Of a stretch of DNA of 20,220 nt, positions 1 to 16,581 are shown in pieces (within the stretch, counting starts at the first letter, position 1; each line of letters starts with the position of its first letter). The DNA is taken from positions 1 to 20,220 of the forward strand of contig JALFTG010000094.1 of the NCBI GenBank assembly GCA_022779345.1, read 5' to 3'. The notes under the pieces are model-generated. The model was not told the origin of the DNA and did no database searches. It saw nothing but the letters and a program-made list of their open reading frames with translations. This stretch comes from Oscillospiraceae bacterium. GTDB lineage: Bacteria > Bacillota > Clostridia > Oscillospirales > Oscillospiraceae. A program made the position numbers and the translations under genes.

Positions 1-645
1 CTTTTTCAGCAGGCTCTGGACCTGCACGCCGTATTTACCCACGATGTTGGTGTAGTACCGCCGGGCCTCGTCCAGATGATCCCGGTCAAAGTCCACCTCA
101 TCGGCGAACAGGGCGCCGTTCAGGGCACCGAAAGTGCCGAAGGCGTCGGCGGAGAAGAGGATCTTCGCCGTTTCATCATAAGTGACCATGACCTCCGGCC
201 AGTGGACCATGGGGGCCATAATGAATTTGAAGCTGTGCCTGCCGGAAGAGAAGTCGGCCTTTTCATCCACCACCTGCACCGTGTCAAAATTCTGAGCAGG
301 GAAGAAGTTCTTCAGCATGGTGACCACCTTGCTGTTGGTGACGATGGTGGTCTCCGGGTGGCGCAGCAACAGCTCGCTGACCGTGGCGGAGTGGTCCGGC
401 TCCATGTGCTGGATCACGAGATAATCCAGGCTCCGGCCGGCCAGCACATGGTCGATGTTTTCAAAAAAGACCCGGCTGACCGCGTTGTCCACCGTGTCGA
501 ACAGAACGGTTTTCTCGTCCAGCAGCAGATAGGAATTGTAGGACACGCCGTCGGGGACGGAATAGACGCCCTCAAACAGGGACAGCCGCCGGTCATTGCC
601 GCCCACCCATACCAGATCGTCGGTCACATTTCTTGTGCAGTACAT
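1..645 (-). CDS. Flavodiiron protein (FprA-type A-type flavoprotein), N-terminal metallo-beta-lactamase-like part. The 3' end lies outside the window.
   Basis: My own reverse-strand translation from ATG 645..643 reads MYCTRNVTDDLVWVGGNDRRLSLFEGVYSVPDGVSYNSYLLLDEKTVLFDTVD...LVIQHMEPDHSATV...FSADAFGTFGALNG. It contains the H-x-E-x-D-H di-iron motif. GGAGG sits 8 nt upstream of this ATG; the in-frame ATGs at 660 and 651 lack a usable SD. The frame is open to the window edge, which is why it is missing from the ORF track. Confidence 0.8.
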   Translation of the reverse strand, partial: MYCTRNVTDDLVWVGGNDRRLSLFEGVYSVPDGVSYNSYLLLDEKTVLFDTVDNAVSRVFFENIDHVLAGRSLDYLVIQHMEPDHSATVSELLLRHPETTIVTNSKVVTMLKNFFPAQNFDTVQVVDEKADFSSGRHSFKFIMAPMVHWPEVMVTYDETAKILFSADAFGTFGALNGALFADEVDFDRDHLDEARRYYTNIVGKYGVQVQSLLKK

Positions 646-777
646 AAGCATTTCCTCCATCTATTCATACAAATTTTCAAACCTGTCACAATTCTTTGTA
701 AGAAATCAGTCTATCACACAGGGGGAGTTCTGTAAACCGGTTTCTGTGTAAAATTTCCCGCACAGCGGGGAAATCTG

Positions 778-786
778 TGGTATAAT
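778..786 (+). promoter_or_regulatory. Candidate extended -10 promoter (TGgTATAAT) for the GTPase-NYN gene
   Basis: TG at 778-779, one nt, then a perfect TATAAT at 781-786, about 30 nt upstream of ATG 816. GGAG lies 7 nt before the ATG. No good -35 is present. Sequence match only. Confidence 0.4.
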
Positions 787-815
787 ACAATCATTCTGTC
801 AATCGGAGTTGGACT

Positions 816-3365
816 ATGAAGAAACTGACCATCGGCATCATGGCCCATGTGGATTCGGGCAAGACCACATTGTCCGAAGCGCTGCTGTATGAGACCGGAA
901 CCATCCGCAAGCTGGGGCGGGTGGATCACCGGGATGCCTATCTGGACCACTATGCCCTGGAGCGGGAGCGGGGGATCACCATTTTCTCCAAACAGGCCCG
1001 GCTGAAAACCCCCTCCATGGAGATCACCCTGCTGGACACCCCCGGCCACGCGGACTTCTCCGCGGAGATGGAGCGGGTGCTCCATGTGCTGGACTATGCC
1101 ATCCTGGTGATCAGCGGCACCGACGGGGTCCAGGCCCACACGGAGACCGTGTGGCATCTGCTGCAGCGGTACCGGGTGCCCACATTTCTGTTTGTGAATA
1201 AAATGGACCTGGCCGGGGCGGACCGGGGGCAGGTGCTGGCATCGCTCCGGCGGAACCTGTCGGAGGCCTGTGTGGACATGACGCCCCGGGAAGAGCTTCC
1301 GGAGGAGCTGGCAATGTGCGACGAGGCGGTGCTGGACCGGTATATGGACACCGGCGCCGTGTCAGACGCCGACATCACCGCACTTGTCCGGGAACGGAAG
1401 CTGTTCCCCTGCTGGTTCGGGTCCGCCCTGAAGCTGGAGGGCGTGGCGGAATTTCTGGACGCCCTGGAGCGGTTCACGGCCGAGCCGGAGCGGGGCAGAG
1501 AATTTGCCGCCAGCGTGTATAAGATCGCCCGGGACGCCCAGGGCAACCGCCTGACCTATCTGAAGCTCACCGGCGGCAGCCTGAAGGTGCGCTCCGCCGT
1601 TTCCTATACCGCCCGGAACGGGGACGCGCTGGAGGAGAAGGTGAACCAGATCCGCCTGTACTCCGGGGAGAAATTCGAGACGGCGGAGACGGTGTCCGCC
1701 GGGGATGTGTGCGCCGTCCTGGGCCTGACGGATACCTGGCCGGGCCAGGGCCTGGGCGCCCAGCCGGATGCGGCGGCCCCCCTGCTGGAGCCGGTGCTGT
1801 CTTACCGGATCGGCCTGCCCGCCGGGACGGACGCCCGGGTGATGCTGCCGAAGCTCCAGCAGCTGGAGGAAGAGGACCCCATGCTGCGGATCGTGTGGAA
1901 CGAACGGCTCCAGGAGATCCAGGCCGAGCTTATGGGCAGGGTCCAGATCGAGGTGCTGAAAAGCCTGATCCGGGACCGGTTCGATGTGGATGTCACCGTG
2001 GACTCCGGGCATATCTGCTACCGGGAGACCATCGCCGCCCCGGTGGAGGGCGTGGGCCATTTTGAGCCATTGCGCCACTATGCGGAGGTCCACCTGCTGC
2101 TGGAGCCCCTGCCTGCCGGGAGCGGGCTGGTATTTGGCACAGCGTGCAGCGAGGAGACCCTGGACCGGAACTGGCAGCGGCTGATCCTGACCCATCTGGA
2201 GGAGCGGCAGCATCCGGGGGTGCTCACCGGGTCGCCCGTCACGGATATGAAAATCACCCTCATCGCCGGCCGCGCTCATCTGAAGCACACGGAGGGCGGC
2301 GACTTCCGCCAGGCCACCTACCGGGCGGTGCGTCAGGGCCTGATGGAGGCGGAAAGCGTTCTGCTGGAGCCGGTTTACAGCTTCCGGCTGGAGGTGCCCG
2401 CCGACCAGATGGGCCGTGCCATCAACGACATCCGGGCCATGTCCGGCACCTTCCAGACCCCGGACGACTATGGCGAGACCGTCACCATCACGGGCACGGC
2501 CCCGGTGGCCTGCATGGGGGATTATCAGGCGGAGGTGGCCGCCTATACCCGGGGCCGTGGCCGGCTGAGCTGCGCCCTGTCCGGGTACGCCCCCTGCCAC
2601 GACGCGGATAAGGTCATCGCCGAACTGGGCTATGACCCGGACAGCGACACGGACAACCCCACCGGGTCCGTCTTCTGCGCCCACGGAGCGGGGTTCTATG
2701 TACCCTGGGATCAGGTGCGCGCCTATATGCACATCGACAGCGGCCTCAGCGACCGGCAGGGCGAAGATGCCCCCCTCCAGCCCCGGGTGTATACCCGGAA
2801 CCTGGACATCGACGAGAAGGAGCTGGAGGCCATCATGGAGCGGGAATTCGGCGCCATCCGCCGGCCCCAGTACCGCTCGGCAAAACAGGAAATGCAGCTG
2901 GAAAAGATGCGCCAGCCGGCGCCGAAAAAGGACTACATTATCGTGGACGGGTACAACATGATCTTCGCCTGGGCGGATCTGAAACCCCTGGCCGAGACAG
3001 ACCTGGATGCCGCCCGCCTGCGCCTGATGGACAAGCTGGCCAACTACCGGGCCTTCCGGGACTGCGAGCTGGTGCTGGTGTTCGACGCCTACCGGGTAAA
3101 GGGCAACCCCGGCTCCCGGTTTGACCACTTCGATGTCCATGTGGTCTACACAAAAGAGAACGAGACCGGGGATCTGTATATCGAGAAGCTGGCCAACTCC
3201 ATCGGCCGGAACTACCGGGTCCGGGTGGTGACCTCCGACGCCCTGATCCAGCTCTCCGCCCTGCGCTCCGGCGTGCTGCGGATGTCCGCCCCGGAGTTTG
3301 AGCGGGAAGTGAACGATATCCTCGCCCGCATCGACCGGTTTATCCAGGGAACCATGGAAAAATAA
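816..3365 (+). CDS. Translational GTPase of the EF-G/TetM (ribosomal-protection-like) family fused to a C-terminal YacP/Rae1-like NYN nuclease domain
   Basis: A single 849-aa ORF. G1 AHVDSGKT, G3 DTPGH and G4 NKMD are present. By eye it aligns with Tet(M)/EF-G domains I-V over roughly aa 1-650 (e.g. [45 protein letters not shown]). A roughly 55-aa charged linker follows. Then [13 protein letters not shown]...LVFDAY...[16 protein letters not shown]...VVTSD matches B. subtilis YacP/Rae1 (LVDGYNMI, VVFDAH, TKENETAD..IEKLA, ATSD). Confidence 0.9.
2928..3362 (+). other. NYN_YacP (Rae1-like) ribonuclease domain, a sub-region of CDS 816..3365
   Basis: Conserved acidic NYN motifs are present: VDGYN (Asp codon 2946-2948), VFDAY, ENETGD and VTSD. 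They are collinear with B. subtilis YacP/Rae1 as recalled from memory. Confidence 0.75.
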
Positions 3366-3371
3366 GCCTCC

Positions 3372-3412
3372 GCGCCGCATTCCGCAGCTTCTGCCGGAAG
3401 GCGGCGCTTTTT
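3372..3412 (+). terminator. Rho-independent terminator of the GTPase-NYN gene
   Basis: GCGCCGC (3372-3378) pairs with GCGGCGC (3401-3407), with an inner TTCCG/CGGAA extension. TTTTT follows at 3408-3412. It starts 7 nt after the TAA stop. Confidence 0.7.
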
Positions 3413-3421
3413 GTGGGTTGG

Positions 3422-3536
3422 TGACGAAAAATGACAAAGTTGAATCCGCACAGAATCGGACGGGAACGGTCGAAAAACATCGAAAAGTTTTGAAAAGTTC
3501 AGAAATCTGGCGAAAAACTGAGGTTTATGTCGATAA
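3422..3536 (+). promoter_or_regulatory. Array of five 0A-box-like motifs (nCGAAAA / TGnCGAA type) upstream of spo0A
   Basis: The motifs are TGACGAA 3422-3428, GGTCGAA 3468-3474, CATCGAA 3478-3484, TGGCGAA 3508-3514 and TGTCGAT 3528-3534. The CGA cores begin at 3425, 3471, 3481, 3511 and 3531, so the last four are spaced by exact multiples of 10 bp. Confidence 0.4.
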
Positions 3537-3669: not shown

Positions 3670-4449
3670 ATGGAGAGCAAAGTACGCATCCTGATCGCGG
3701 AGCCGGAAGAGGAATTTCGGATGCTGCTGCGGGACACGATCTCGGAAGAAGAGGACATGGAGCTTGTCGGAGAGACCGGGGACGGTCTGGAACTGCTGAC
3801 GCTGGCGGAGCGGTATAACCCGGATATCATCCTGATGGAGCTGGTGCTCACGGGGCTGGACGGGTTCGGGGTTCTGCGGAACCTGCAGGACGCCCGGCTG
3901 ACCGGGGATGTGCTGGTGCTGTCGGCCTTTGTGAACGCCCAGACGGTCCGGGACTGCTCGGAGCTGGGTGCGGCCTGTTTCATCCCGAAACCCTGTGATA
4001 TTCCCTCTGTGATGGCCCGGATCCGTCAGCTCCGGGAGAACAAAGGGCTCCATGTTGTGAACAATCAGCCCGTCCCGGACCCTGCCCCGGACCTGGAGGC
4101 CATGGTCACGGACATCCTCCATGAGATCGGCGTGCCCGCCCACATCAAGGGCTATCAGTATCTGCGGGAGGCCATCGTGCTGACCATCAACGATATGGAC
4201 ATGATCAACGGCGTCACCAAGGTGCTGTACCCGGCGGTGGCCCGGAAATTCGGCACCACGCCCTCCCGGGTGGAGCGGGCCATCCGCCACGCCATCGAGG
4301 TGGCCTGGGACCGGGGCGATGTGGAGGTGCTGCAGAGATATTTCGGCTACACCGTCTCCGGCGTGAAGGGAAAACCCACCAATTCCGAGTTCATTGCCAT
4401 GATTGCCGACAGCCTGTCCCTGCGCCGGAAGACCATGAAAAATCAGTGA
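3670..4449 (+). CDS. spo0A: Spo0A-family sporulation/stationary-phase response regulator with an atypical receiver domain
   Basis: The C-terminal domain is nearly identical to the B. subtilis Spo0A signature: [47 protein letters not shown]. The N-terminal part has a CheY-like fold pattern. I chose the start at ATG 3670 ([11 protein letters not shown]), with GGAGG at 3655-3659. The track's 3418 start adds 84 low-complexity residues across the AT-rich intergenic region. Confidence 0.9.
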
Positions 4450-4851: not shown

Positions 4852-5052
4852 TTACTTCAGGTTGTAGCGCTTGTTGAACTTGTCCACGCGGCCGCTGGTG
4901 TCGACCAGCTTCTGCTTGCCGGTGTAGAAGGGGTGGCACTTGGAGCAGATTTCGACGGTGATGTTCTGCTTGGTGGAGCCGGTCTCATACACGGCGCCGC
5001 AGGCGCAGCGGATGGTGGTGGGCTGGTAATTGGGATGGATTCCTTCCTTCAT
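4852..5052 (-). CDS. rpmE: 50S ribosomal protein L31, zinc-ribbon (type A) form
   Basis: The sequence [63 protein letters not shown] is a canonical L31 with CxC...CxxC. I chose the start at the second ATG (5052) because AGGAGA lies 8 nt upstream; the track's 5070 start adds MKEKCT. Confidence 0.9.
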
Positions 5053-5116
5053 GGTACATTTCTCCTTCATTCAAGCTGCCTTGAGTACATTTCTGTGGTT
5101 ACAAGACGCATAGCAA

Positions 5117-5156: not shown

Positions 5157-8100
5157 TCAGAATTCCACGGAAATTCCCGGATGCAGGAAGTACAGCACGC
5201 TTTTTTTCACGGGCAGGCCCGTAATTTCCGTCAGGGCCTGAGCGTAGGCGTCCACCTGACTGCGGTACAGCTCCGCCCGGGCGGGCACGCCTTCGGCAGA
5301 GACGGCGTCAGTCTTGTAGTCGATGACCGTCCAGACCCCGTCCTGCTCCACGGCGCAGTCGATGACGCCCTGGAGCAGCACCTCGTCGTCCCCGGCGCCG
5401 GGGAAGTACGCATCCGCCGGATGGAGGAGGGAGAATTTGAATTCCCGCAGCACCCGGTCCCCGTGCTTCACCGCCTGCCCCGCCGGGGAGGTGAAAAAGC
5501 CGTACACCCGTTCCGGGTCCACCACTGCCGCCTGCTGCTCCGTCAGGCACCCGGCGGCCCGGAGCCGGGCGATCTCCTGCTCCACCTGTTCCCGGGTGTC
5601 CGTTTTCCGGAAGTCGATGTGCTGGAACACCAGATGGGTGGCAGTGCCCTTCTCCGCGGCGGTGAGGGGGCGGTGGGCGCTGTCGGGACGGAAGGCCCGG
5701 AAGCTCCGGCGCTTCCCGGTGACGAGGGGTGCGGCGTCAGCGTCCGGCACATCCCCAATGTGCTTCAGCTCCGTGGCGGTGATCTTGGAGGGCAGGGCCT
5801 CCGCCGGCTGGTAGGGATATTCCCACGCCAGATTTGCCGCCAGCTGGTCCACCAGCGCCGGGTCGGCGGTCTCCGCCTCCGGGACGGATTCCTCCGTCCG
5901 GACCGGGGCGATGTCGTCCACCTCCCGGTACTCGATCCGCAGATGGTTCCCCTCATCCGCCAGGGCGGCGGAGATCAGCCAGTCTGACAGGGAACTCTGC
6001 CCGGCCAGCAGCTGGGGGGACATGGGGGAGGTGACCAGGGGGTACAGGTCGTTCACCTTTTTCTCCCCGTCCCCCACGATGGCGGTCATGTACAGATACT
6101 CCTTCGCCCGGGTCATGGCCACATACAAAAGGCGCATCTCCTCGGACAAGGTCTCCGTGTTCATCCGCCGGGCGATGGCCCGCCGGGGCATGGAGAAGTA
6201 TTCGATCCCCCGGTCCGGGTCCGTGACCTTCGGCCCCAGCCCCAGCTGGGGATGGACCAGCACCGTGGCCATGGTGTCCTGCTTGTTGAACCGCCGGGCG
6301 GTATCGCACAGGAATACGATGGGGAATTCCAGCCCCTTGGACTTGTGGATGCTCATGAGGCGCACGGCGTCGCCGCTGTCGGCGTGGGACACGGCGGGTT
6401 CCTCCCCGGATTCCGCCTGCCGCTTCAGCCATACCACGAACTGCCGCAGCCCCTGATACTGCCCCGCCTCAAACCGGGCGGCCAGATCGATCAGGGCCAT
6501 GAGGTTGGCCCGCCGGACGGCCCCGTCCTCCATGGCGGAGCTGATGGTGAGGATGTCCAGATCCCCGTACACCCGCCACAGCAGCTCGCTCAGGGGCAGA
6601 TCCGCCGCCAGGGTGCGGAAGGTGTTCAGTTTCTCCAGAAACTCCCGGCACTTTTCGTCCTCCTGGCCCCGCAGGCACAGTGCCTCAAAGAAGCTCAGCT
6701 TCTTCCCGCAGGCGCGGATGGCGGCCAGATCGTCCGGGGAGAAATCCAGATAGGGGGAGCGGAGCACGGCGATGAGCGGCACATCCTGCTGGGGATTGTC
6801 GATGATGGCCAGCAGGGACATCATCAGGGAGATCTCCGGGGTCTCATAATATCCGCCGCCCTGTTCGGACTGGACGGGGATGCCTTGAGCCGCCAGCTCC
6901 CGGCGGTACACGGCAGACACCGTGTTGGCCGAGCGCATGAGCAGCACGATGTCCCCGTACCGGGCGGGGCGCTGCACGCCGCCGTCGGTGACAGGGGTGC
7001 CGCTGTCGATCAGCTCCCGGATGCGCCGGGCCACGAAAGCGGCCTCACAGGCGTGGGCGTCCGGGGATTCCTCCCCCTCATCCGCATCCGGCTTGTTCAC
7101 CAGATACAGCGTGGGCAGGGGGACGCTGCCCTCGTAGTCTGCCCCGCACTGCAGGCGGGCGTGCCCGTCATAGTCCAGCTCGCCCAGCTGCCGGGACATG
7201 ATGTTTTCAAACACCGCGTTGGCCGCGTCCAGCACCTCATGCCGGGAGCGGAAGTTCTGCTGGAGCAGGATGCGCCGGGGCGCACCCGGTTCGGCGGTGT
7301 CATAGTCGGCGTAGGTCAGGTACTTCTCCGTGAAGATGCCCGGGTCCGCCAGCCGGAACCGGTAGATGGACTGCTTCACATCCCCCACGGTGAACAGGTT
7401 TGTCCCGTCCCGGGACAGGCACCGGAAAATCAGCTCCTGCACGGCGTTCACATCCTGGTATTCGTCCACCATGATCTCCGTGTACCGGCTGCTCAGCTCC
7501 CGTGCCAGCTCTGTAGGCTGATCGTTTTCATCCGCCAGCAGCTTTGCGGCGAAGTGCTCCAGATCGGCGTAGTCCACAAAGTCCCGGCGGCGCTTCTCGG
7601 CGGCGTAGGCCCGGTCAAACTCCAGGGTCACCCGGAGCAGGGCGTCCATGGCCGGGGCGGTTTTCCGCATATCCGCCAGTACCTTGGCCGACGGCTCGGA
7701 AAATTCCGCCTTCAGCTTGGCGCAGGCCTTTTTGCAGGCGTCCCGCCGGGCTTTGATGCCCTCCGCCACCTCCGGGTGTTTCGGATTTCGCAGTCCACCC
7801 AGCCGGGGGAAGGGGATGTCGGCGTACATGGCCGCCTTGTCCCAGCCCTGCTCCGCCGCCCGGACAAAGGCGCGCAGGCCGTCGGCGGTTTCACCGATGC
7901 TGGCGGCGTATTTGGCCCCGATGTAGGCGTACTCCGGCTCGTTCATCAGCCCCAGCAGCCCGTCCATGACATCGGCCCAGTAGGCGGCGTCGGCGGCATT
8001 GCTGCTGAGCAGATACCGGCCCCAGACCGTGTCTCCGGCATCGGTGATGTCCCGGGCGTACAGACCGTCCCGCCGGGATTCGGCCCACCGCTCCGGGTCC

Positions 8101-8663
8101 GGGTGGCTCTGCATTTTCGTGTGCAGGTTCAGAATCAGCGCTTCCAGCCGGGCATCGTCCCGTCCGGCGCCCACGGTGTCCGCCAGCAGGCGGAAATCCG
8201 GGTCCGTATCGATCTTCTCATACCGGGCTTCCAGCACTTTCGTCAGCGCCGTCTGCTTCATGGCCTCCGCCCGGTCGTTTTCCAGAATTTTGAAGTCCGG
8301 AGACAGCCCCAGGGGCAGGGCGTGGTCCCGGAGAAGGGACGCACAGAAGCCGTGGATGGTGCTGATCTGGGCATGGGGCACCAGGGCGTACTGCCGCCGC
8401 AGGGCGGCGTTGCCGGGATCATCGGCCATGCGCCGGGTGATCTCGTCCATGATCCGCCCCCGCAGTTCTCCGGCGGCGGCACGGGTGTAGGTGATGATGA
8501 GAAAGCTGTCGATGCTTTTCGGGTCTGCTCCCGTGATCCAGGCCATGAGCCGCTCGGTGAGCACCTTGGTCTTGCCGGACCCGGCGGCGGCGGACACGAG
8601 GATGCCGCTGCCCCGGCCGTCAATGGCCTGCTGCTGTTCTCTTGTGGGGGTAAATTCAGCCAC
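5157..8663 (-). CDS. addA: ATP-dependent helicase/nuclease subunit A (AddA, UvrD-like helicase plus C-terminal PD-(D/E)XK nuclease)
   Basis: 1168 aa. Walker A is VSAAAGSGKTKVL. UvrD/PcrA-type motifs are present (TFTRAA-like ITYTRAAAGEL, VDEYQDVN, GDVKQSIYRFR, QNFRS, SIHKSKGLEFP, LLYVAMTRAK). The C-terminal nuclease motif is VIDYKTD. It uses a GTG start at 8663 with GGAG 9 nt upstream, and sits immediately downstream of addB. Confidence 0.93.
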   Translation of the reverse strand: MAEFTPTREQQQAIDGRGSGILVSAAAGSGKTKVLTERLMAWITGADPKSIDSFLIITYTRAAAGELRGRIMDEITRRMADDPGNAALRRQYALVPHAQISTIHGFCASLLRDHALPLGLSPDFKILENDRAEAMKQTALTKVLEARYEKIDTDPDFRLLADTVGAGRDDARLEALILNLHTKMQSHPDPERWAESRRDGLYARDITDAGDTVWGRYLLSSNAADAAYWADVMDGLLGLMNEPEYAYIGAKYAASIGETADGLRAFVRAAEQGWDKAAMYADIPFPRLGGLRNPKHPEVAEGIKARRDACKKACAKLKAEFSEPSAKVLADMRKTAPAMDALLRVTLEFDRAYAAEKRRRDFVDYADLEHFAAKLLADENDQPTELARELSSRYTEIMVDEYQDVNAVQELIFRCLSRDGTNLFTVGDVKQSIYRFRLADPGIFTEKYLTYADYDTAEPGAPRRILLQQNFRSRHEVLDAANAVFENIMSRQLGELDYDGHARLQCGADYEGSVPLPTLYLVNKPDADEGEESPDAHACEAAFVARRIRELIDSGTPVTDGGVQRPARYGDIVLLMRSANTVSAVYRRELAAQGIPVQSEQGGGYYETPEISLMMSLLAIIDNPQQDVPLIAVLRSPYLDFSPDDLAAIRACGKKLSFFEALCLRGQEDEKCREFLEKLNTFRTLAADLPLSELLWRVYGDLDILTISSAMEDGAVRRANLMALIDLAARFEAGQYQGLRQFVVWLKRQAESGEEPAVSHADSGDAVRLMSIHKSKGLEFPIVFLCDTARRFNKQDTMATVLVHPQLGLGPKVTDPDRGIEYFSMPRRAIARRMNTETLSEEMRLLYVAMTRAKEYLYMTAIVGDGEKKVNDLYPLVTSPMSPQLLAGQSSLSDWLISAALADEGNHLRIEYREVDDIAPVRTEESVPEAETADPALVDQLAANLAWEYPYQPAEALPSKITATELKHIGDVPDADAAPLVTGKRRSFRAFRPDSAHRPLTAAEKGTATHLVFQHIDFRKTDTREQVEQEIARLRAAGCLTEQQAAVVDPERVYGFFTSPAGQAVKHGDRVLREFKFSLLHPADAYFPGAGDDEVLLQGVIDCAVEQDGVWTVIDYKTDAVSAEGVPARAELYRSQVDAYAQALTEITGLPVKKSVLYFLHPGISVEF

Positions 8664-11600
8664 GGTCCAGCGCTCCTTTCATCATCTCCCACACCTTTGT
8701 GGCCGGGAGACCCGGCAGGTACCGCCGGGCGTCCCCGTGGCGGCCCTCCTCAAAGTAACAGGCGTCGGCGTAGTCACAGAACATACAGGCGTTTTTCTGC
8801 TGGGATTTATAGTAGGGGTCGGCGGCGATGCTGCCGCTTTTCAGTTCACAGGCCAGTTTCCGGAGGGTGGCGTCGATGTGCCGGGCCAGAATCCCCATCT
8901 GCTCGGCGGTGGCCAGGGCTTCCGGCGCGGAGGAACCCCGCTTTTTCACGGTGACGGGGATGTACCGGTATTCCTCCCCCTCCTCCATGGCGGCGATCAC
9001 TGCGTCGTCCTGCAGAATCAGGCCGGAACGGAGATGCTGTTTGGATTTCAGCTTGGCGATCTCCTCATCGGACAGGTCGGCATCACTGCGGACCGCCTTG
9101 TCAAAGGCGGGGACATACAGCACTCCGGCGGGGACAATCTCCTTGCCGTACAGCTCCTGCCCGCACTGCTCCAGCGTGAACAGATACAGCAGCATCTGGA
9201 GATTCATGCCGTACCACACATCGGACAGGGAGAACTCCTTCCGGCCGGTCTTGTAGTCCACCACCCGGAGGTACAGCTTGCCCTCGTGCTCCCAGCCGTC
9301 CACCCGGTCGGCGATGCCCGTGAGCACCAGACTGTCCTCTCCCTCGCCCAGCTCCATGGGCGGGATCTGGTCGGCGTTGCCGAAGTCCAGCTCGAAGCTC
9401 AGCGGCTCAAATTCGGACCGGCGCAGCTCTCCCGCCATGTCGTCCACCACGGCCCGGACATCCCGGGTCAGGCGGCGGAACAGATAGACGAACCGGGGGC
9501 TTTTCTCCCGAAAATCGTTCAGGTATTCGGTAATATACTGCCCGATGGCGGCGTCCGTCAGGGCGTGGAGGGTGTCGTCATCCACCTCCCGGAACCCGCC
9601 CCGGGCCATCACATCCCCGGCCACCCGCTCCAGCACATAGTGCATGAAGGTGCCCATCTCCGGCGGAGCAAAAGCGGCGGGCTGCCGGGGCCTGGCGTTC
9701 AGGCCGTACTGGAGAAAGTAGGCGAAGCGGCAGGAGGCGAACTTGTCGATCCGGGAGGCGGACAGCCGGGGCTTGTCCCCGTACAGCTGCTCCACCGCCC
9801 GGCGGGACAGCTGGCCCCGGCTCTGCCCGGCGGCGGTGCGGAGCCGGAACAGTTCGTCCGGGTCCTCTTTTTCAAACCAGGCGCAGGCCGCCCGGGCCTG
9901 CCCGCCCGCTGTGGGGGTGCGCAGGGCAAAGGCCGCCAGCTCCAGGGCGCTGCCCCGGCTCTGGGCCTTGCACACCGCCGTGTCGATTGGGCGGACGGGG
10001 GCGTCAAACAGGGCCGCAGCCCGGTTCATGACGATGGAGGGACGGCTGTCCCCGTCATCGGCGTAAGTCATGGTCAGGCTCTCCTTCGGCAGGGTCAGGC
10101 AGTTGTAGATCAGACTGAACTCCCGCCACAGTTCCGCCTCTCCGCAGGAACCCAGGTCCAGCCCGGCTTCCAGCAGCCGCTCCCGGTCCTCGGCGGAGAA
10201 CACGCCGGTGGTGTCGTCCGGCCGGGGGAGGTTTGCGTCAGAGGCGCCCAGCACGATGAGATGCTTGATATTTCTCCGCCGCATCCGGTCCATCTCGCCG
10301 GCGCTCACCCGGTCCACGGCGATGGGGATGGTGCCCACATCGTACTGGGAGAGCATGAGGGAGAACAGTTTGGCGAAGGTCTCTGTGTCCATCTCCGTAT
10401 CTCCCAGCAGGGCCTCGAACTGCTCCATGGCGGTGAGGGTGATCTCCCACAGCCCGGCGCACTCGGCGGCCTGCTGGGGATAGCCCGCCGCCTCCAGAGC
10501 GTCCGCCTGCCGTTCCAGATGCTCTGCCGTGTGCAGCTGCTCCAGCAGGGAGGCCAGGGCGGCGATGTGGTCCCGGCCGGTCTCAGCGGATGCCTCCGCC
10601 TCTGTCAGGGCGGCCAGAGGGGCGGCTGTCTGCCGGCGCAGGGCGTTAATCCGCGCCAGGGCGGCGTTGTCCCCGTCGGTCCAGGTGTCGGAGTACCCCG
10701 CCGGGTGGAGGGTCCAGTCCGCCTCCCGGGTCCACAGGGTGCCCCGGAGGTTCCACAAAAGCACATAGTTTTCCAGAGCATCGCACTCCGCCGGGGTCAT
10801 GCCCGTCAGGCCCGTGCGGAGATAGGCGAACACATCGTCCGCCTCCCAGCCGCCGGTGATGATCTCATAGGCGGAGGAGATCAGCAGGGGCAGGGGCTTG
10901 GAGAGCAGGTCGGTCTTTTTCGCAAAGTACAGAGGCACCCCGTATTTCCGGAAGGTGCTGTCCAGAATCGTCTCATAGGCGTCAAAGCCCCGGACGGCCA
11001 CGGCGATGTCCCGCCAGCGGCAGCCCGTGTCCCGGACCAGGGTGATGGCGGCGGCCGCCGCCAGCTCGCACTCGGCGGCGATGCTGTCCCCGGCATAGAG
11101 CCGGATGCGCCCCTCCGGGTCCGGGCAGCGCAGGCGGGTATAGGTGAACAGATGCTCCCCGAAGAAGGTGAGGGGGGCGTCCGGGGTTCGGCTTTCCATG
11201 TGGATGTGCTCCGGGACCATGCCCCGGTCCTCTGCCTCCCGGCGGAGATGCCGGTAAGTGGTCAGGGGGATGGCGAACACCTCGTTCTCCGGCTCCCGGG
11301 GATCGCAGGTCAGGCACACGGTCAGGTCGCACCCGGCATCCAGCAGAGCGGAGAGGATGTTCCGCTGCTGGCGGGTGAAGTCCGTGAAGCCGTCGATGTA
11401 CACCCGGATGCCCCCCATGTCCGCGTCGGGAATGCGCTCCGCCAGCCGGGTGAGCCGGTCGGTGGGGTCCGTGTGGCCCTCACTGACCACGCTGTCGTAC
11501 ATCCCGGCCAGAAGGGCCAGGTCATAGAGCTTGTCCTCCAGTACGCCGCCGCAGGCCTTTCCGGCCTCCAGCAGGTCCTCCGGGGTGATGCAGGCGGTTT

Positions 11601-11979
11601 TCAGCTCGGTCACCGCGTCCAGCAGCTGGCTCTGCAGGCGCACCTGTTTCCTTGCGGCGCCGTAAAACCGCAGCTGGGAAAACACCCTGGACACGGCCAG
11701 GGACATGCACAGCAGCTGTCCGCCCTTGTCCAGAGGCGGCAGTTCCCCGCTGCCCAGCATCCGGTCCACCCACCGGGCCAGCCCCGTGAAGCTGAGCACC
11801 TCCGCATACAGCGACAGCCCCGGGCCGCACACCCGGCACAGTTCCCGCTCCGCCTCATGGCTGTACTGCTCCGGCACGATCAGGATGCTCCGGCGCCGGG
11901 CCGTCACATCCTCCCGGATGCGCTCCATGAGATATGTGGTTTTTCCTGTTCCGGCCCTGCCGGTGACGATGGTGAGCAT
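8656..11979 (-). CDS. addB: ATP-dependent helicase/nuclease subunit B (AddB, with a C-terminal Fe-S nuclease domain)
   Basis: 1107 aa. The N-terminal P-loop is TGRAGTGKTT. The C-terminal RecB-type motif is VVDYKTGRK. Four Cys match the AddB iron staple (ASCRFAYF ... CMFCDYADAC). GGAGG lies 7 nt upstream of ATG 11979. The stop overlaps the addA GTG start (GTGGCTGA). Confidence 0.93.
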   Translation of the reverse strand: MLTIVTGRAGTGKTTYLMERIREDVTARRRSILIVPEQYSHEAERELCRVCGPGLSLYAEVLSFTGLARWVDRMLGSGELPPLDKGGQLLCMSLAVSRVFSQLRFYGAARKQVRLQSQLLDAVTELKTACITPEDLLEAGKACGGVLEDKLYDLALLAGMYDSVVSEGHTDPTDRLTRLAERIPDADMGGIRVYIDGFTDFTRQQRNILSALLDAGCDLTVCLTCDPREPENEVFAIPLTTYRHLRREAEDRGMVPEHIHMESRTPDAPLTFFGEHLFTYTRLRCPDPEGRIRLYAGDSIAAECELAAAAAITLVRDTGCRWRDIAVAVRGFDAYETILDSTFRKYGVPLYFAKKTDLLSKPLPLLISSAYEIITGGWEADDVFAYLRTGLTGMTPAECDALENYVLLWNLRGTLWTREADWTLHPAGYSDTWTDGDNAALARINALRRQTAAPLAALTEAEASAETGRDHIAALASLLEQLHTAEHLERQADALEAAGYPQQAAECAGLWEITLTAMEQFEALLGDTEMDTETFAKLFSLMLSQYDVGTIPIAVDRVSAGEMDRMRRRNIKHLIVLGASDANLPRPDDTTGVFSAEDRERLLEAGLDLGSCGEAELWREFSLIYNCLTLPKESLTMTYADDGDSRPSIVMNRAAALFDAPVRPIDTAVCKAQSRGSALELAAFALRTPTAGGQARAACAWFEKEDPDELFRLRTAAGQSRGQLSRRAVEQLYGDKPRLSASRIDKFASCRFAYFLQYGLNARPRQPAAFAPPEMGTFMHYVLERVAGDVMARGGFREVDDDTLHALTDAAIGQYITEYLNDFREKSPRFVYLFRRLTRDVRAVVDDMAGELRRSEFEPLSFELDFGNADQIPPMELGEGEDSLVLTGIADRVDGWEHEGKLYLRVVDYKTGRKEFSLSDVWYGMNLQMLLYLFTLEQCGQELYGKEIVPAGVLYVPAFDKAVRSDADLSDEEIAKLKSKQHLRSGLILQDDAVIAAMEEGEEYRYIPVTVKKRGSSAPEALATAEQMGILARHIDATLRKLACELKSGSIAADPYYKSQQKNACMFCDYADACYFEEGRHGDARRYLPGLPATKVWEMMKGALDRG

Positions 11980-12011
11980 GGCGTCCCCTCCGAATAGGAA
12001 TCTTTTGCAGT

Positions 12012-12020
12012 ATTATATCA
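12012..12020 (-). promoter_or_regulatory. Candidate extended -10 promoter (TGaTATAAT) for addB-addA
   Basis: Read on the minus strand, 12020..12012 is TGATATAAT, about 33 nt upstream of the addB ATG. No convincing -35 is present. Confidence 0.45.
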
Positions 12021-12044
12021 TATTCTGACAGGATGAGTATAACA

Positions 12045-12280
12045 AAACCGCTGTCCCGGAAACGGGAGAGCGGGAGGAAATTAGAAATGAGGAATTTAGT
12101 GGGTGCGCTGTCTTTTTGCTTCGCAGAATTCGGCTCCGCAGAGCCGAAGAAAGTTCAGTCTGTTTTTTCGGCAGCTTCGCCGTCGAAAAAACACTTCTCA
12201 CGGAGAGAGTGTGCCCGTAGGGCGCGCGAACGCAGTGCAATCCCATCGTTCAAACCGACAGGTTTGAACGAGTATAGCCG
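12045..12280. repeat. Non-coding mosaic of at least five stem-loops plus a degenerate RAATTAG heptad tract
   Basis: Hairpins: 12048-12073 (CCGCTgTCCCG GAAA CGGGAgAGCGG), 12129-12148 (TTCGGCTC cgca GAGCCGAA), 12163-12191 (TTTTTTCG...CGAAAAAA) and 12247-12270 (CGTTCAAACC gaca GGTTTGAACG). The heptad-like tract is at 12078-12099. No credible ORF is present. Confidence 0.6.
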
Positions 12281-12316
12281 AAAAAAGCCCGTCGGCAGAG
12301 GCCGACAGGCTTGTTT
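12281..12316 (-). terminator. Rho-independent terminator of rpmB
   Basis: Read on the minus strand: AAGCCTGTCGGC ctct GCCGACGGGCTT followed by TTTTTT. It lies about 22 nt past the rpmB stop. Confidence 0.75.
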
Positions 12317-12337
12317 CGGGTAAAATCAATTACGCAA

Positions 12338-12523
12338 TTATGCGCGGGTGACCTTGCCGCTGCGCAGGCAGCGGGTGCAGACGTAAACATGCTTGGGAGT
12401 TCCGTCCACGATGGCCTTGACGCGCTTCACATTGGGTTTCCAGGTGCGGTTGGACCGTCTGTGAGAGTGGGAAACCTGGATGCCGAAAGACACATCCTTG
12501 TCGCAAAACTGACATTTTGCCAT
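12338..12523 (-). CDS. rpmB: 50S ribosomal protein L28 (Cys-containing form)
   Basis: The sequence MAKCQFCDKDVSFGIQVSHSHRRSNRTWKPNVKRVKAIVDGTPKHVYVCTRCLRSGKVTRA is a typical L28 (SHSHRRSNR.W.PN). GAGGAGG lies 9 nt upstream of the ATG. Confidence 0.9.
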   Translation of the reverse strand: MAKCQFCDKDVSFGIQVSHSHRRSNRTWKPNVKRVKAIVDGTPKHVYVCTRCLRSGKVTRA

Positions 12524-12569
12524 TCTGAAGCACCTCCTCGAATTTAATATGCTGAAAAACAGCTATATC

Positions 12570-12598
12570 ATGATACCAGAAAGCAGCGCTGAATGCAA
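12570..12598 (-). promoter_or_regulatory. Candidate sigma-A promoter for rpmB
   Basis: Read on the minus strand: TTGCAT (12598..12593), a 17-nt spacer, then TGgTATCAT with the -10 TATCAT at 12575..12570. Confidence 0.5.
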
Positions 12599-12657
12599 GA
12601 AAAATTTTCAATCCGGGAAAAAACTTCTGAATTGCCCGGCAAAGGCAGGCGGAGCCA

Positions 12658-12686
12658 TTGCCAAAACCGGGGAAATTGGTTAAAAT
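12658..12686 (+). promoter_or_regulatory. Candidate sigma-A promoter for the hprK-murB-rapZ block
   Basis: TTGCCA (12658-12663), a 17-nt spacer, then TAAAAT (12681-12686), about 43 nt upstream of the hprK start. Confidence 0.4.
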
Positions 12687-12728
12687 AAGATATTAGATAT
12701 TTGCACCGTATGAAAGGGGAATTGCGCT

Positions 12729-13658
12729 GTGAGTCAGTATTCCGTACCTTTGAAAACCATCGTGGAGGAGCTGGAACTGGAGATCCTCCGGAAGTCCAGC
12801 GACTATGAGCAGAAAGTCATCACAAAAGCGGATGTGAACCGCCCGGCATTGCAGCTGGCGGGCTTTTATAACTATTTTGATCCCCACCGGCTCCAGTGCA
12901 TCGGCCGGGTGGAGAGCACCTTTCTGGAATCCCTCTCTCCCCGGGACCGGAACCGGTCCTTTGAGGAGTTTATGAAGCAGGACATCGATGGGCTGATCAT
13001 CTGCCACAACTGTGTGCCCTTCCCGGAGTGCCTGGCCATGGCGGAGAAATATGACCGGAATGTGTTCCAGATCCAGGAGGACACCTCCAAATTCATGGCC
13101 GATCTGATCGACACCCTCACCGGCTATCTGGCGCCCCGGAAGACCATCCACGGCGTGCTGGTGGAGGTGTTCGGCGAGGGCGTGCTCATCACCGGCGAGT
13201 CCGGCGCGGGCAAGAGCGAGGCCGCCCTGGCCCTGATCACCCGGGGCCACCGGCTGGTGGCGGACGACGCCGTGGAGATCAAGCGTCTTTCCAAAAAAAG
13301 ACTGCGCGGCTGTGCGCCGGAACTCATAAGATATTACATGGAGCTGCGGGGCATCGGCATCATCAACGCCAAGGAAGTCTACGGCTGGAGCGCCGTGAAG
13401 CCGGAGACGGATATCGACCTGATTGTCCACCTGGAATACTGGGATGAGGACAAATTCTATGACCGGCTGGGCATCGACACGGAGTATGAGGAGATCATGG
13501 GAGTGAAGGTCCCCAGCATCACCATTCCGGTGCGCCCTGGCCGGAACCTGGCCGTCATCATCGAGCTGGCCACGCTGAACAACCGGCAGAAAAAGATGGG
13601 CAACAATGCCGCCCAGATGCTGTCGGACTCCATGGACCAGCAGATGCGGGGGAATTGA
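12729..13658 (+). CDS. hprK: HPr kinase/phosphorylase
   Basis: 309 aa. It contains the Walker A GESGAGKSE, the HprK signature LVADDAVEI and ELRGIGIIN. GTG start at 12729, preceded by AAGGGGA. Confidence 0.92.
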   Translation: MSQYSVPLKTIVEELELEILRKSSDYEQKVITKADVNRPALQLAGFYNYFDPHRLQCIGRVESTFLESLSPRDRNRSFEEFMKQDIDGLIICHNCVPFPECLAMAEKYDRNVFQIQEDTSKFMADLIDTLTGYLAPRKTIHGVLVEVFGEGVLITGESGAGKSEAALALITRGHRLVADDAVEIKRLSKKRLRGCAPELIRYYMELRGIGIINAKEVYGWSAVKPETDIDLIVHLEYWDEDKFYDRLGIDTEYEEIMGVKVPSITIPVRPGRNLAVIIELATLNNRQKKMGNNAAQMLSDSMDQQMRGN

Positions 13659-13675
13659 GTTTGGGAGAGAAGGCA

Positions 13676-14593
13676 ATGGAGAAATCCCTGTTGTATGAAG
13701 CAGTGAAAGGGGCATTCCCGGGACTGGATGTGCGGGCCTGGGAGCCCATGACCCGGCATACCACCTTCCGTATCGGAGGCCGGGCGGAGGTGTTTGTCCG
13801 CCCGGCCTCCCCGGAGGAGACGGCGGCGGTCTGCGCCTTTTTCCGGGAGAAGGGCGTGAAGCCCTTCCTCATGGGCCGGGGCAGCAACCTGCTGTTTGCC
13901 GATGAGGACCTGCCCGGCGCGGTGATTCAGCTGGCGGAGAATCTGTCCGGCGTGGAGCGCACCGGGGAGCGGACCCTGTATGCCCTGGCGGGCACGACCC
14001 TGGCGGGTCTGGCCCAGACCGCCCGGCAGGCAGGGCTGGCGGGCATGGAGTTTGCCGGGGGCATCCCCGGGGCCATGGGCGGCGGCGTGACCATGAACGC
14101 CGGGGCCTACGGCGGGGAGATGAAGGACATCGTCACAAGGGTGGACTATCTGGACAAAGACCTGACCCTCCGGTCCCTGCCGGGGACGGACTGCGGTTTC
14201 CGCTATCGGGACAGTGTGTTCTCCGCACCGGGCAGGGTGATCCTGGGGGCGGAGCTGACGCTGACGCCGGATGACCCGGCGGAGATCGGGGCGCGGATGG
14301 AGACCCTGCGGGAGAAGCGGGTGGCCAGCCAGCCCCTGGACTGGCCCAGCGCGGGCAGCACCTTCAAGCGGCCCGTGGGCGGCTTTGCGGCGCAGATGAT
14401 CGACGAGGCGGGGCTGAAGGGCTATGCCGTGGGCGGAGCCCAGGTGTCGGAAAAACACGCGGGCTTTGTGATCAACCGTGGCGGCGCCACCTGCGGCGAT
14501 GTGCTGGCGTTGATGGAGCACATTCAGAAGACCGTCCAGGCCCGCACCGGCATCCTGCTGGAGCCGGAAGTGAAAATCATCCGCGCGCTGTGA
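13676..14593 (+). CDS. murB: UDP-N-acetylenolpyruvoylglucosamine reductase
   Basis: MurB type-II pattern: TTFRIGGRAE, GRGSNLL, GIPGAMGGGVTMNAGAYGGE, FRYRDS, PSAGSTFKRP, GGAQVSEKHAGFVIN. I preferred ATG 13676 (GGGAGAG SD) to the track's TTG 13655, which overlaps the hprK stop. Confidence 0.92.
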   Translation: MEKSLLYEAVKGAFPGLDVRAWEPMTRHTTFRIGGRAEVFVRPASPEETAAVCAFFREKGVKPFLMGRGSNLLFADEDLPGAVIQLAENLSGVERTGERTLYALAGTTLAGLAQTARQAGLAGMEFAGGIPGAMGGGVTMNAGAYGGEMKDIVTRVDYLDKDLTLRSLPGTDCGFRYRDSVFSAPGRVILGAELTLTPDDPAEIGARMETLREKRVASQPLDWPSAGSTFKRPVGGFAAQMIDEAGLKGYAVGGAQVSEKHAGFVINRGGATCGDVLALMEHIQKTVQARTGILLEPEVKIIRAL

Positions 14594-14621
14594 GCGCGTT
14601 TGCAAACAAGAGGGGAACGGT

Positions 14622-15494
14622 ATGGAATTCATTATCATCTCCGGATTGTCCGGAGCGGGAAAGAGCCGGGCGGCGGCAGCGCTGGAGGACATGGGCGTGT
14701 ACTGTGTGGACAATATGCCCGTGGCCCTGCTGCCCCAGCTGGCAGATATTTTTCTGAATATGCAGGACCGGTACACCCGGGTGGCGCTGGTGACGGACAT
14801 CCGGGCCTGGGGCGACGCCAATGAGCTGCTGTTTGCCCTGGATGAGCTGCGCAGCCAGGGCATCGCCTACCGGATTTTGTTCCTTTACGCGGATATGCCC
14901 ACGCTGATCAAGCGGTATAAGGAGACCCGCAGGCGGCACCCGTTGGAGACGGGCACCGTGTCCCTGGAGGCGGCCATCCGCCGGGAGACGGGGATTCTGG
15001 AGCCTATCCGCCGGCAGGCGGAGGATGTGATCAACACCACGAACATGACGCTGGGCCAGCTGAAAAACCGGATTGAGGACATTTTCGGCTCAGAGGTGGC
15101 CCGCCGGGGCATCGGCGTGAATGTGATCTCCTTCGGGTTCAAATACGGCGTGCCCATCGAGGCGGATATGGTGTTTGATGTGCGCTTTCTGCCCAATCCC
15201 TATTACATAGAGGAGCTGCGCCACAAGACGGGCCTGGACGATCCCGTGTACGACTATGTGTTCCGGGACGGGACGGCGGCGGAATTTCTGGACAAGCTGC
15301 TGGAGATGCTGCTGTTTTTGCTGCCGCTGTATGAGAAGGAGGGAAAGTATTCCCTCACCGTGGGCATCGGCTGCACCGGCGGCCAGCACCGGAGCGTGTC
15401 CATCGCCCGGGCCCTGGCCGAGCATCTGAAGCAGCGGGACATCCCCGTACGCATCGAGCACAGAAATATCGACGGGGACACGAAAGTAAGATAA
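14622..15494 (+). CDS. rapZ: RNase adapter / nucleotide-binding protein RapZ (YvcJ family)
   Basis: 290 aa. It contains MEFIIISGLSGAGKS (P-loop), VDNMP, the FGFKYG...D.VFDVRFLPNPY motif and GCTGGQHRSV. Confidence 0.92.
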   Translation: MEFIIISGLSGAGKSRAAAALEDMGVYCVDNMPVALLPQLADIFLNMQDRYTRVALVTDIRAWGDANELLFALDELRSQGIAYRILFLYADMPTLIKRYKETRRRHPLETGTVSLEAAIRRETGILEPIRRQAEDVINTTNMTLGQLKNRIEDIFGSEVARRGIGVNVISFGFKYGVPIEADMVFDVRFLPNPYYIEELRHKTGLDDPVYDYVFRDGTAAEFLDKLLEMLLFLLPLYEKEGKYSLTVGIGCTGGQHRSVSIARALAEHLKQRDIPVRIEHRNIDGDTKVR

Positions 15495-15532
15495 ACAGAT
15501 TGTCTGCAAAAGACCGACTGCAATTTTGATTT

Positions 15533-15639
15533 CTGTCATTGCGAGGAGCGAAGCGACGTGGCAATCCGTTCTTCTTTTCAAAGACACAAAGAGAATGCGG
15601 ATTCCCACGTCGGGGCTGCGCCCCTCCTCGGAATGACAG
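15533..15639 (+). repeat. 107-nt nested-hairpin intergenic repeat, copy B
   Basis: Same orientation, same length and the same four conserved blocks as copy A (4669..4775). It occupies most of the rapZ-whiA spacer. Confidence 0.85.
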
Positions 15640-15672
15640 TCGATTTTGCGAACGCTGCGAGGCTTTTTCAAT

Positions 15673-16581
15673 ATGTCATTTTCATCAGAAGTCAAAACGG
15701 AATTATGCGCCGCGGCGGTGCATGACAAGGCCTGCGCCGTGGCGGAGTGCTATGGGGTGCTGCTGTACTGCAATACCTTCACCGCCCGGGAAATCCGGAT
15801 CGTCACCGCCGGGCGGGACTTTGCCCAGCGGCTGCCCCGGCTGCTGAAGCGGGCCTTCGGTGTGGAATTTGACCGGATCATCGAGGGCGGGGAGAAGAGC
15901 AAGTATATCCTCACCGTCACGGACCGGGACAAAATCCGGAAGATCTTTGACGCCTTCGGCGCCGACGCGGACAACACCCCGGTGCTCCATGTGAACCTGG
16001 GCGTGCTGGAGGACCCGGGCTGCCGGACAGCCTTCCTCCGGGGGGCGTTCCTGGCCGGCGGCAGCGTCACGGACCCGGACAAGCGGTTCCATCTGGAACT
16101 GGTGACCAGCCATTTCAGCGTCAGCCGGGAGTGCTACACCCTGCTGCTGGAGCTGGGGTTCACCCCCCGGGAGACGGTCCGGAGCGGGAACCAGGTGATC
16201 TATTTCAAGCAGGCCGACGCCATCGCCGAGCTGCTCACCACCCTGGGGGCCTCCAAAGCCGGGATGGATGTGGTGTCCGCCAAGATCGGCAAATCCATGA
16301 GCAACTCCGTGAACCGGAAGCTGAACTGCGACTTCGCCAACGCGGACAAGGTGGTGGCGGCGGCCCAGGAACAGCTGAACGCCATCAAAAAGGTGGACCG
16401 GGAGATCGGCATTCCCAACCTGCCGGAGGGCCTGCAGCAGGCGGCGTTCCTGCGGATCGCCAACCCGGACATGAGTCTGGCGGACCTGGCTCTGCTGTCC
16501 GATCCCCCGGTGACGAAAAGCTGCCTGAACCACCGGCTGAAAAAGCTGGTAGAAATGGCGAAGCAGATTTCATTCAATTAG
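15673..16581 (+). CDS. whiA: Sporulation/cell-division transcription regulator WhiA (YvcL family)
   Basis: It starts MSFSSEVKTELC, the typical WhiA N-terminus, followed by FLRGAFLAGGSV (degenerate LAGLIDADG) and a C-terminal HTH (LADLALL...KSCLNHRLKKL). I preferred ATG 15673 to the track's TTG 15646. Confidence 0.92.
   Translation: MSFSSEVKTELCAAAVHDKACAVAECYGVLLYCNTFTAREIRIVTAGRDFAQRLPRLLKRAFGVEFDRIIEGGEKSKYILTVTDRDKIRKIFDAFGADADNTPVLHVNLGVLEDPGCRTAFLRGAFLAGGSVTDPDKRFHLELVTSHFSVSRECYTLLLELGFTPRETVRSGNQVIYFKQADAIAELLTTLGASKAGMDVVSAKIGKSMSNSVNRKLNCDFANADKVVAAAQEQLNAIKKVDREIGIPNLPEGLQQAAFLRIANPDMSLADLALLSDPPVTKSCLNHRLKKLVEMAKQISFN

Follow-up and report, generated by a model that had tools for sequence, protein, structure and literature searches.

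The ribonuclease Rae1 (YacP) of Bacillus subtilis cleaves messenger RNA (mRNA) only during translation, next to stalled ribosomes (PMC12407103), and this cleavage leads to rescue by transfer-messenger RNA (tmRNA) (PMC10351889; PMC12407103). A cut within the ribosomal A site was the first proposal, derived from docking, and was revised in 2025 by the same group: where ribosomes stall, at stop codons or SPP motifs, the mRNA is cut at their tail end, 12 nucleotides (nt) 5' of the A-site codon, and collided ribosomes may be required (PMC12407103). Translational GTPases of the TetM/EF-G type bind the A-site/GTPase centre, with the tip of domain IV loop III at C1054 (PMC8161019, PMC4750697). Fusions of a TetM-like GTPase to an NYN_YacP nuclease domain have been recorded in Clostridia, in ten species by Atkinson (2015, BMC Genomics; PMC4342817) and again by Matelska et al. 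(2017, Nucleic Acids Research; PMC5499597). Here we analyze a gene of this kind in contig JALFTG010000094.1 of an Oscillospiraceae bacterium (assembly GCA_022779345.1); the whole stretch analyzed, positions 1-20,220, is referred to as the window. By its architecture the gene is a member of the recorded family, and we infer its function from its two halves.

A preliminary description of the window had treated the combination as new. The architecture was published in 2015 and 2017, so that novelty is confined to function: neither a functional study of the fusion family nor a functional characterization of the architecture was found in the full-text literature. The open reading frame (ORF) runs uninterrupted for 849 amino acids (aa), as first read, in a single frame with neither stop nor frameshift inside, and contains the following features:

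816-3365, plus strand: translational GTPase-NYN fusion ORF, 849 aa, ATG start, stop codon 3363-3365.
825-1475, plus strand: G domain, aa 4-220, with a short G' insert (Pfam GTP_EFTU, 1.2e-51).
1503-2000, plus strand: domains II and III, aa 230-395 (Pfam EF-G_D2, EFG_III).
2010-2351, plus strand: domain IV, aa 399-512 (Pfam EFG_IV, 8.8e-19), with family-specific tip loops.
Within domain IV, plus strand: tip loops aa 414-426 and aa 485-498 (the latter 2268-2309), compared with the TetM and EF-G loops.
2358-2603, plus strand: domain V, aa 515-596 (Pfam EFG_C, 1.3e-17).
2583-2735, plus strand: family-specific C-terminal mini-domain, aa ~590-640, from alignments, with a GYxPCH... motif.
2736-2930, plus strand: flexible charged linker, aa 641-705 (65 aa; 13 K+R, 13 D+E).
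2805-2855, plus strand: conserved short helix in the linker, aa 664-680, from conservation.
2931-3362, plus strand: Rae1/YacP-type NYN endoribonuclease domain, aa 706-849 (Pfam NYN_YacP).

The claim of an in-frame fusion, not an assembly join, is borne out by the identical 849-aa ORF, which occurs on at least seven contigs from at least four independent samples. This repeated assembly, the architecture of the homologues and a conserved linker motif together rule out an artefact, whether a join or a missed frameshift. All 120 of the 120 best homologues have the same Pfam set and a length of 845-887 aa, as do, for the Pfam set, nearly all of the 120 best matches to a 50%-identical Agathobacter homologue; many fused proteins are 61-79% identical to the window protein. 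A genome scan with one genome per species, searched via the family-specific peptide KHTEGGDF, finds relatives in at least 591 species-level genomes. The best 80 of these at least 591 relatives, which form our set of related loci, are all fused genes, 79 of them full length. Carriers in the scan include Oscillospiraceae, Ruminococcaceae, Acutalibacteraceae, Lachnospiraceae (Blautia, Roseburia, Dorea and others), Faecalibacterium, Flavonifractor and Intestinimonas, and further Anaerovorax, Peptostreptococcaceae, Cellulosilyticaceae and Monoglobus; the closest relatives of the window protein belong to Oscillospiraceae, Ruminococcaceae and Lachnospiraceae. An exhaustive HMMER search with residues 585-849 at E <= 1e-30 returns 413 representative clusters; mini-domain, linker and NYN domain are all covered in each of the top 150. 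Single 90%-identity clusters hold 20,090 and 9,172 member sequences. The family is large, vertically distributed and extremely abundant in gut Clostridia such as Faecalibacterium, Roseburia, Blautia, Agathobacter and Oscillospiraceae.

The GTPase body (aa 1-596) can be aligned over its whole length with structures of EF-G and TetM/TetO. Pfam places EF-G_D2 at aa 230-306 (E 4.2e-06) and EFG_III at aa 325-395 (E 1.2e-07). We built an AlphaFold2 model of the window protein on 74 family sequences; its predicted local distance difference test score (pLDDT) is mostly above 85 over domains II and III and averages 83 over the whole protein, with the body and the NYN domain confident. The top fold matches in the PDB (Foldseek) are all EF-G, EF-G2 or archaeal EF-2, ribosome-bound or free (E 1e-55 to 1e-46). 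The G domain carries AHVDSGKT (G1), RGITI (G2), DTPGH with His78 (G3) and NKMD (G4). Residue conservation was counted over 139 fused members: motifs G1 to G3 and two residues of G4, K and D, never vary, and 138 of the 139 retain His78, the catalytic His of DTPGH. Pfam, AlphaFold, Foldseek and motif conservation agree on a five-domain EF-G-like fold with G1-G4 and the catalytic His, as had been proposed for residues of about 1-650, except that the body ends near aa 596, not 650. The curated EF-G equivalog cut-offs are not reached (305.1 versus 659.4 for TIGR00484; 341.5 versus 583 for NF009381).

The NYN_YacP profile matches aa 708-844 with an E-value of 7.1e-41 (140.4 bits against a gathering score of 24.6), which confirms the Rae1/YacP-type domain placed at aa ~705-849; the motifs first named for the protein, VTSD among them, are all present, and GTP_EFTU, EFG_III, EFG_IV, EFG_C and NYN_YacP are all matched within the one ORF. 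The domain aligns with residues 2-140 of B. subtilis Rae1/YacP (PDB 5MQ8/5MQ9) at E = 1e-25, and the NYN half is ~40-43% identical to Rae1 (residues 2-146). Matelska et al. (2017, PMC5499597) define an active NYN_YacP domain by four or more conserved Asp, the first of them followed by a GYN motif, and the window protein has these features. D711-G-Y-N714, D757, D786 and D808 are kept in 139/139 fused members, E790 is essentially invariant, and D711, D757, D786 and D808 align with Rae1 D7, D53, D81 and D104. More than 139 full-length Clostridia homologues keep all NYN aspartates and the GTPase motifs. As both catalytic centres are invariant among the fused members, both activities are under selection, and from their residues both halves look catalytically competent. 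The NYN domain is expected to share its chemistry with Rae1, and likely also its substrate class, mRNA on stalled ribosomes.

AlphaFold predicts one long C-terminal helix in the NYN domain (aa 825-848), while the Rae1 family has two, with basic residues; the window protein is without the last ~25 residues of Rae1. A Rae1-like tail is kept in several family members (loci L008, L022 and L072), which rules out its loss as a family trait and makes it a lineage detail. We also considered a separate NYN protein made from an internal start and set it aside: M691 and M697 have only weak Shine-Dalgarno-like sequences, and the Met are kept in close relatives only.

Between the body and the nuclease lie two segments. 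The mini-domain has three residues that never vary (C594, C621, W631) and two that almost never do (H623, H639), with H595 present in 86% of fused members; AlphaFold predicts a beta-alpha-beta-beta-alpha order with a pLDDT of 74-93. No counterpart was found in Pfam (aa 585-710, E <= 10) or by PDB sequence search, and TetM and EF-G have no segment alignable to it. The Cys/His pattern (C594, C621, H623, H639) suggests a metal site, possibly for zinc. The linker that follows had been described as charged and ~55 aa long; it is charged, but extends over aa 641-705 and begins after the mini-domain, which had gone unseen. A pLDDT below 50 over aa 646-702 indicates that the GTPase and NYN halves are joined by a disordered linker, within which helices are predicted at aa 668-678 and 689-697 and the residues E669, L670, I/V673, F/Y678 and G679 are conserved. 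Across the family the linker measures 63-144 aa, and its disorder and variable length fit a tether.

Based on the fusion of an intact GTPase half to an intact NYN half, a ribosome-targeted RNase, as first proposed, is still the most reasonable reading of this protein. We give an even chance to the more specific model in which it anchors itself to stalled ribosomes under the control of GTP and holds a Rae1-like mRNA endonuclease there on a tether. The GTP form would dock in the factor-binding site of a stalled or collided ribosome with an accessible A site or GTPase centre, that is, one not serviced by EF-Tu or EF-G. Judging from homology, the domain IV tip and the mini-domain could reach toward the decoding centre and read its state, and the tether would let the NYN domain extend to mRNA just outside the ribosome, either at its mRNA entry or where an adjacent ribosome abuts it. 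There the NYN domain may make a Rae1-like endonucleolytic cut just outside the ribosome, after which the truncated message would pass to tmRNA-type rescue and decay and GTP hydrolysis would release the factor. The GTPase would replace or augment whatever lets free Rae1 recognize stalled ribosomes.

The preliminary description had taken Rae1 cleavage in the A site as established, a placement withdrawn in 2025 by the laboratory that made it, and with the Rae1 cut now at the tail of the stalled ribosome, delivery of the nuclease to the decoding site no longer follows. Several points weigh against the anchor model. Rae1 is now taken to cut where mRNA leaves the stalled ribosome (PMC12407103). Because the factor site of that ribosome is far away, the model needs either another cut position or binding to the neighbouring, collided ribosome. 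The factor may bind the trailing collided ribosome, the mRNA entry of which would abut the tail of the stalled ribosome, where Rae1 cuts. Further, B. subtilis Rae1 works without any such GTPase; no experiments on any family member were found in the full-text literature; the putative substrate (mRNA, ribosomal RNA (rRNA) or transfer RNA (tRNA)) is assigned by homology to Rae1; and whether the fusion replaces free Rae1 was checked at genome level in a single organism, with an incomplete record set.

The names given in databases imply a different protein, a tetracycline ribosomal protection protein with an accessory nuclease. The tet_protect model is the best NCBIfam match (424.7 bits), the Prokaryotic Genome Annotation Pipeline labels homologues as TetM-family proteins, and the overall architecture and loop III length are the same as in TetM, but all of these NCBIfam scores fall under the curated cut-offs (424.7 versus 775 for tet_protect, 282.8 versus 1100 for TetM/W/O/S, 238 versus 1420 for Tet(M)), and identity to Tet(M), Tet(O), Tet(W), Tet(S) and TetB(P) is 28-32%, equal to the identity to EF-G. 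In a neighbour-joining tree of the GTPase body (200 bootstraps), the family and the true protection proteins form separate clades, each in 200/200 replicates. P509 of TetM loop III lies in the tetracycline site against C1054 (PMC8161019), and L505-V510 together with the C-terminal helix matter for TetM activity (PMC4750697). Y506, Y507, S508, P509 and V510 of this loop are replaced in the window protein by A487, H488, L489, K490 and H491, of which K490 is invariant, and the C-terminal helix is absent, with the 50-aa Cys/His mini-domain in its place. The gene also has no leader peptide or mobile-element context, and is spread lineage-wide across Clostridia. A role in tetracycline protection is accordingly very improbable, and what had been called a TetM-type body belongs instead to a separate translational GTPase subfamily that also exists without NYN.

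Less improbable, although still unlikely, is that the GTPase docks the NYN domain to cleave 16S or 23S rRNA, at the decoding centre, sarcin-ricin loop or stalk base, or ribosome-bound tRNA, so as to inactivate, turn over or mature ribosomes, for instance in stationary phase or during sporulation. Such targeting is the older proposal for these nucleases, the YacP genes of which lie within an rRNA-processing and modification operon, mrnC-rlmB-rae1 (PMC5499597); a GTPase anchor would put the protein against rRNA elements, and both the mini-domain and the tip of domain IV show strong conservation and many His, Arg and Lys residues. However, Rae1, the sole characterized PF05991 member, cuts mRNA and not rRNA, and a long disordered tether, not a rigid placement against rRNA, carries the NYN domain; it is on these two grounds that we rate this alternative low. 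Constitutive expression of a housekeeping gene whose product destroys ribosomes would moreover come at a high cost, and the adjacency to spo0A, which might have spoken for sporulation, is not conserved. We regard an anti-phage or abortive-infection effector or toxin, the nuclease of which would stop translation on infection, as very improbable. NYN/PIN nucleases are known from defence systems and two faecal contigs labelled 'Bacteriophage sp.' carry homologues (MT835563.1, MT835514.1), yet PADLOC gives no relevant match for the protein or its NYN domain (a trivial GTPase match has E = 0.0014), the neighbours are housekeeping genes, and no partner or immunity gene is conserved beside it. Both faecal contigs are marked UNVERIFIED; on MT835563.1, the one examined, the Pfam-matched ORFs are of bacterial housekeeping types (NAD(P)H-hydrate dehydratase, LysR regulator, citrate transporter, peptidoglycan-binding protein), and family members occur on ~5 of 2.9 million IMG/VR contigs, several of the matches at contig ends. 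The negative PADLOC result, the core-chromosome locus and the near absence from viral contigs leave the earlier abortive-defence idea without support.

Both contigs derive from human faecal viromes and their family members are full length (5397-8024 on MT835563.1, L094); from its gene content MT835563.1 is probably bacterial DNA and not phage. Two IMG/VR prophage predictions of 41-42 kilobases (L097, L100) start with a family member at 1-2160 that matches residues 1-641 only, either an NYN-less form or a gene cut at the boundary of the viral prediction; most likely it is host flank taken into the prophage call. The remaining IMG/VR matches are true tet genes.

The GTPase subfamily itself extends beyond the fusion. 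NYN-less sister GTPases of 640-660 aa, 49-55% identical over residues 1-641, are widespread in Lactobacillaceae (Ligilactobacillus salivarius, Companilactobacillus, Levilactobacillus, Paucilactobacillus, Pediococcus, Lactiplantibacillus, Limosilactobacillus), the one family from which this form was sampled. One example is LSL_RS10690 (644 aa), on the L. salivarius megaplasmid pMP118 (NC_007930.1, 3986-5920) and divergent from rpsN (S14). The sister gene is chromosomal in most genera and megaplasmid-borne in L. salivarius. These proteins share with the window protein domain IV loop I and the mini-domain (C594, C621, H623, W631, H639), but end directly after the mini-domain, with no linker and no NYN. 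In the tree they form one clade (200/200) and the fused proteins the other (145/200). At the loop III tip, H488, K490 and E493 are found in 136-139 of the 139 fused proteins, while 11-12 of 12 NYN-less proteins have S, V and V at these positions, so the tip, the part expected to touch the decoding centre, changed together with the gain or loss of the nuclease; this suggests that the domain IV tip co-evolved with the nuclease. More tentatively than for the anchor model, and with somewhat less than even confidence, we propose that the EF-G-like subfamily as a whole serves specifically to sense ribosomes that have stalled or collided, free in Lactobacillaceae and NYN-fused in Clostridia, where it would carry the Rae1 nuclease.

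Labels in RefSeq and other sources for fused and NYN-less members include TetM/TetW/TetO/TetS resistance protein, TetM from transposon Tn916, and elongation factor G; the loci concerned include a fused gene of A. rectalis (L082, 4974-7775) and the NYN-less gene on L. salivarius pMP118, and NYN-less members such as LSL_RS10690 also go by the name 'translation factor GTPase family protein'. Left uncorrected, the resistance label, against which the sequence evidence argues, can inflate resistance-gene counts in microbiome surveys.

We also compared the position of free rae1 among carriers and other Firmicutes. In Bacillus, Listeria, Staphylococcus, Latilactobacillus, Aerococcus, C. difficile and Acetoanaerobium, rlmB is followed immediately by a NYN gene, and this slot holds a NYN gene in every Bacilli record examined. 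In Monoglobus, which has the fusion, the slot is occupied by a metallophosphoesterase (L159, 3477-5041), and its possibly incomplete records yielded no further NYN_YacP locus. In Vescimonas (Oscillospiraceae; L160, 3441-6381) the post-rlmB gene encodes a 718-aa hypothetical protein, not Rae1. As the record sets may be incomplete, these loci are weak evidence that the fusion stands in for free Rae1.

The NYN domain of the window is not a free-standing protein of ~170 aa after rlmB, but is fused and lies between an ODP-family gene and spo0A. The remaining genes of the window and the signals around the fusion gene are:

1-660, minus strand: ODP-family (metallo-beta-lactamase fold) gene.
778-786, plus strand: extended -10 promoter-like element TGgTATAAT, a consensus match only, read from the sequence.
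805-808, plus strand: GGAG ribosome-binding site, 7 nt 5' of the ATG, a consensus match.
3372-3414, plus strand: intrinsic-terminator-like hairpin, arms 3372-3384 and 3395-3407.
~3670-4449, plus strand: spo0A.
4852-5070, minus strand: rpmE.
5157-11979, minus strand: addA and addB.
12338-12523, minus strand: rpmB, presumed.
12729-16581, plus strand: hprK, murB, rapZ and whiA.
16732 to the window end, plus strand: DNA polymerase III alpha.

The locus is core chromosome, and its neighbours, spo0A among them, are housekeeping genes of Firmicutes. In an all-against-all ORF clustering, no neighbour is common to more than 10 of the 80 related loci, and spo0A is adjacent in two of the 80, both from Marvinbryantia (L025, L068), where it lies directly downstream of the fusion gene. 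The adjacency to spo0A, which had been offered as meaningful context, is thus incidental at this frequency, and a link to sporulation was dropped. Core housekeeping DNA and the lack of a conserved partner gene fit a self-contained factor. The genes spoIVB and spo0A form a common neighbourhood. On a longer contig of the same organism (L090, 575-6634), the order is spoIVB (Peptidase_S55), the ODP-family gene on the minus strand, the fusion gene and spo0A, and the ODP and fusion genes appear to be inserted inside the spoIVB-spo0A neighbourhood.

The gene looks monocistronic, in agreement with the preliminary description, whose extended -10 element and terminator are both found as consensus matches. 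No good -35 is paired with the extended -10, which is not listed by our promoter scan, as this requires two hexamers. The terminator hairpin is strong; it has 13-nt arms with 92% complementarity and a 10-nt loop, and is followed by TTTTTGT. No RNA elements or tRNAs were found within the window, and no leader or attenuator resembling that of tet(M). Long antisense ORFs lie opposite the ODP-family gene (76-735, plus strand, 219 aa) and opposite the fusion gene (1362-3437, minus strand, 691 aa); with low-complexity translations, these are GC-rich shadow frames and not genes. Further downstream, the 61-aa ORF at 12338-12523 (minus strand; MAKCQFCDKDVSFGIQVSHSHRRSNRTWKPNVKRV...) is one that we take to encode ribosomal protein L28 (rpmB); it lies in a low-GC intergenic stretch (11980-12728) with hairpins at 12161-12193, 12246-12271 and 12270-12327.

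If this sensor reading is correct, with the nuclease carried by the sensor, the protein would be the first bacterial translational GTPase to deliver an mRNA endonuclease, a GTP-gated device resembling no-go decay, and the fusion would serve as a 'Rosetta stone' for how Rae1-type nucleases engage ribosomes; the fused protein would also be predicted to replace free Rae1 in carrier genomes. How Rae1 recognizes stalled ribosomes is an open question, on which its authors report ongoing structural work (PMC12407103), and for which a GTPase-anchored version that could be trapped on ribosomes with a non-hydrolysable GTP analogue would be a direct handle, structural as well as biochemical, and one that bears also on ribosome rescue in anaerobic Firmicutes.

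The window protein has the architecture and taxonomic group of the published fusion family, of which it is a member. To the 2015 and 2017 records, which were confined to the architecture, we add the subfamily status of the GTPase, the NYN-less sisters, the missing TetM residues, the mini-domain, the linker helix, the invariant active sites and the lack of a conserved gene context. With B. subtilis Rae1 the NYN domain has in common the D-GYN motif, the four Asp and the first C-terminal helix; however, Rae1, of 170 aa, is free-standing, needs no GTPase and has its gene behind rlmB (cysS-mrnC-rlmB-rae1), whereas the window NYN forms the C-terminus of an 849-aa GTPase at an unrelated locus. With Tet(M) and Tet(O) the protein shares the five-domain EF-G-like GTPase, the short G' insert and the length of loop III, but it differs in the changed loop III (P509 to K490) and in its extra mini-domain and nuclease. 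The resemblance to mRNA endonucleases triggered by collision or stalling (SmrB of E. coli, yeast Cue2, RelE-type toxins) and to rescue factors delivered by a translational GTPase (Hbs1-Dom34) is one of functional analogy only, in that a nuclease or rescue module is brought to the stalled ribosome and tmRNA-type or other rescue ensues (PMC12407103); there is no sequence relationship, and none of these is a covalent fusion of a translational GTPase to a nuclease.

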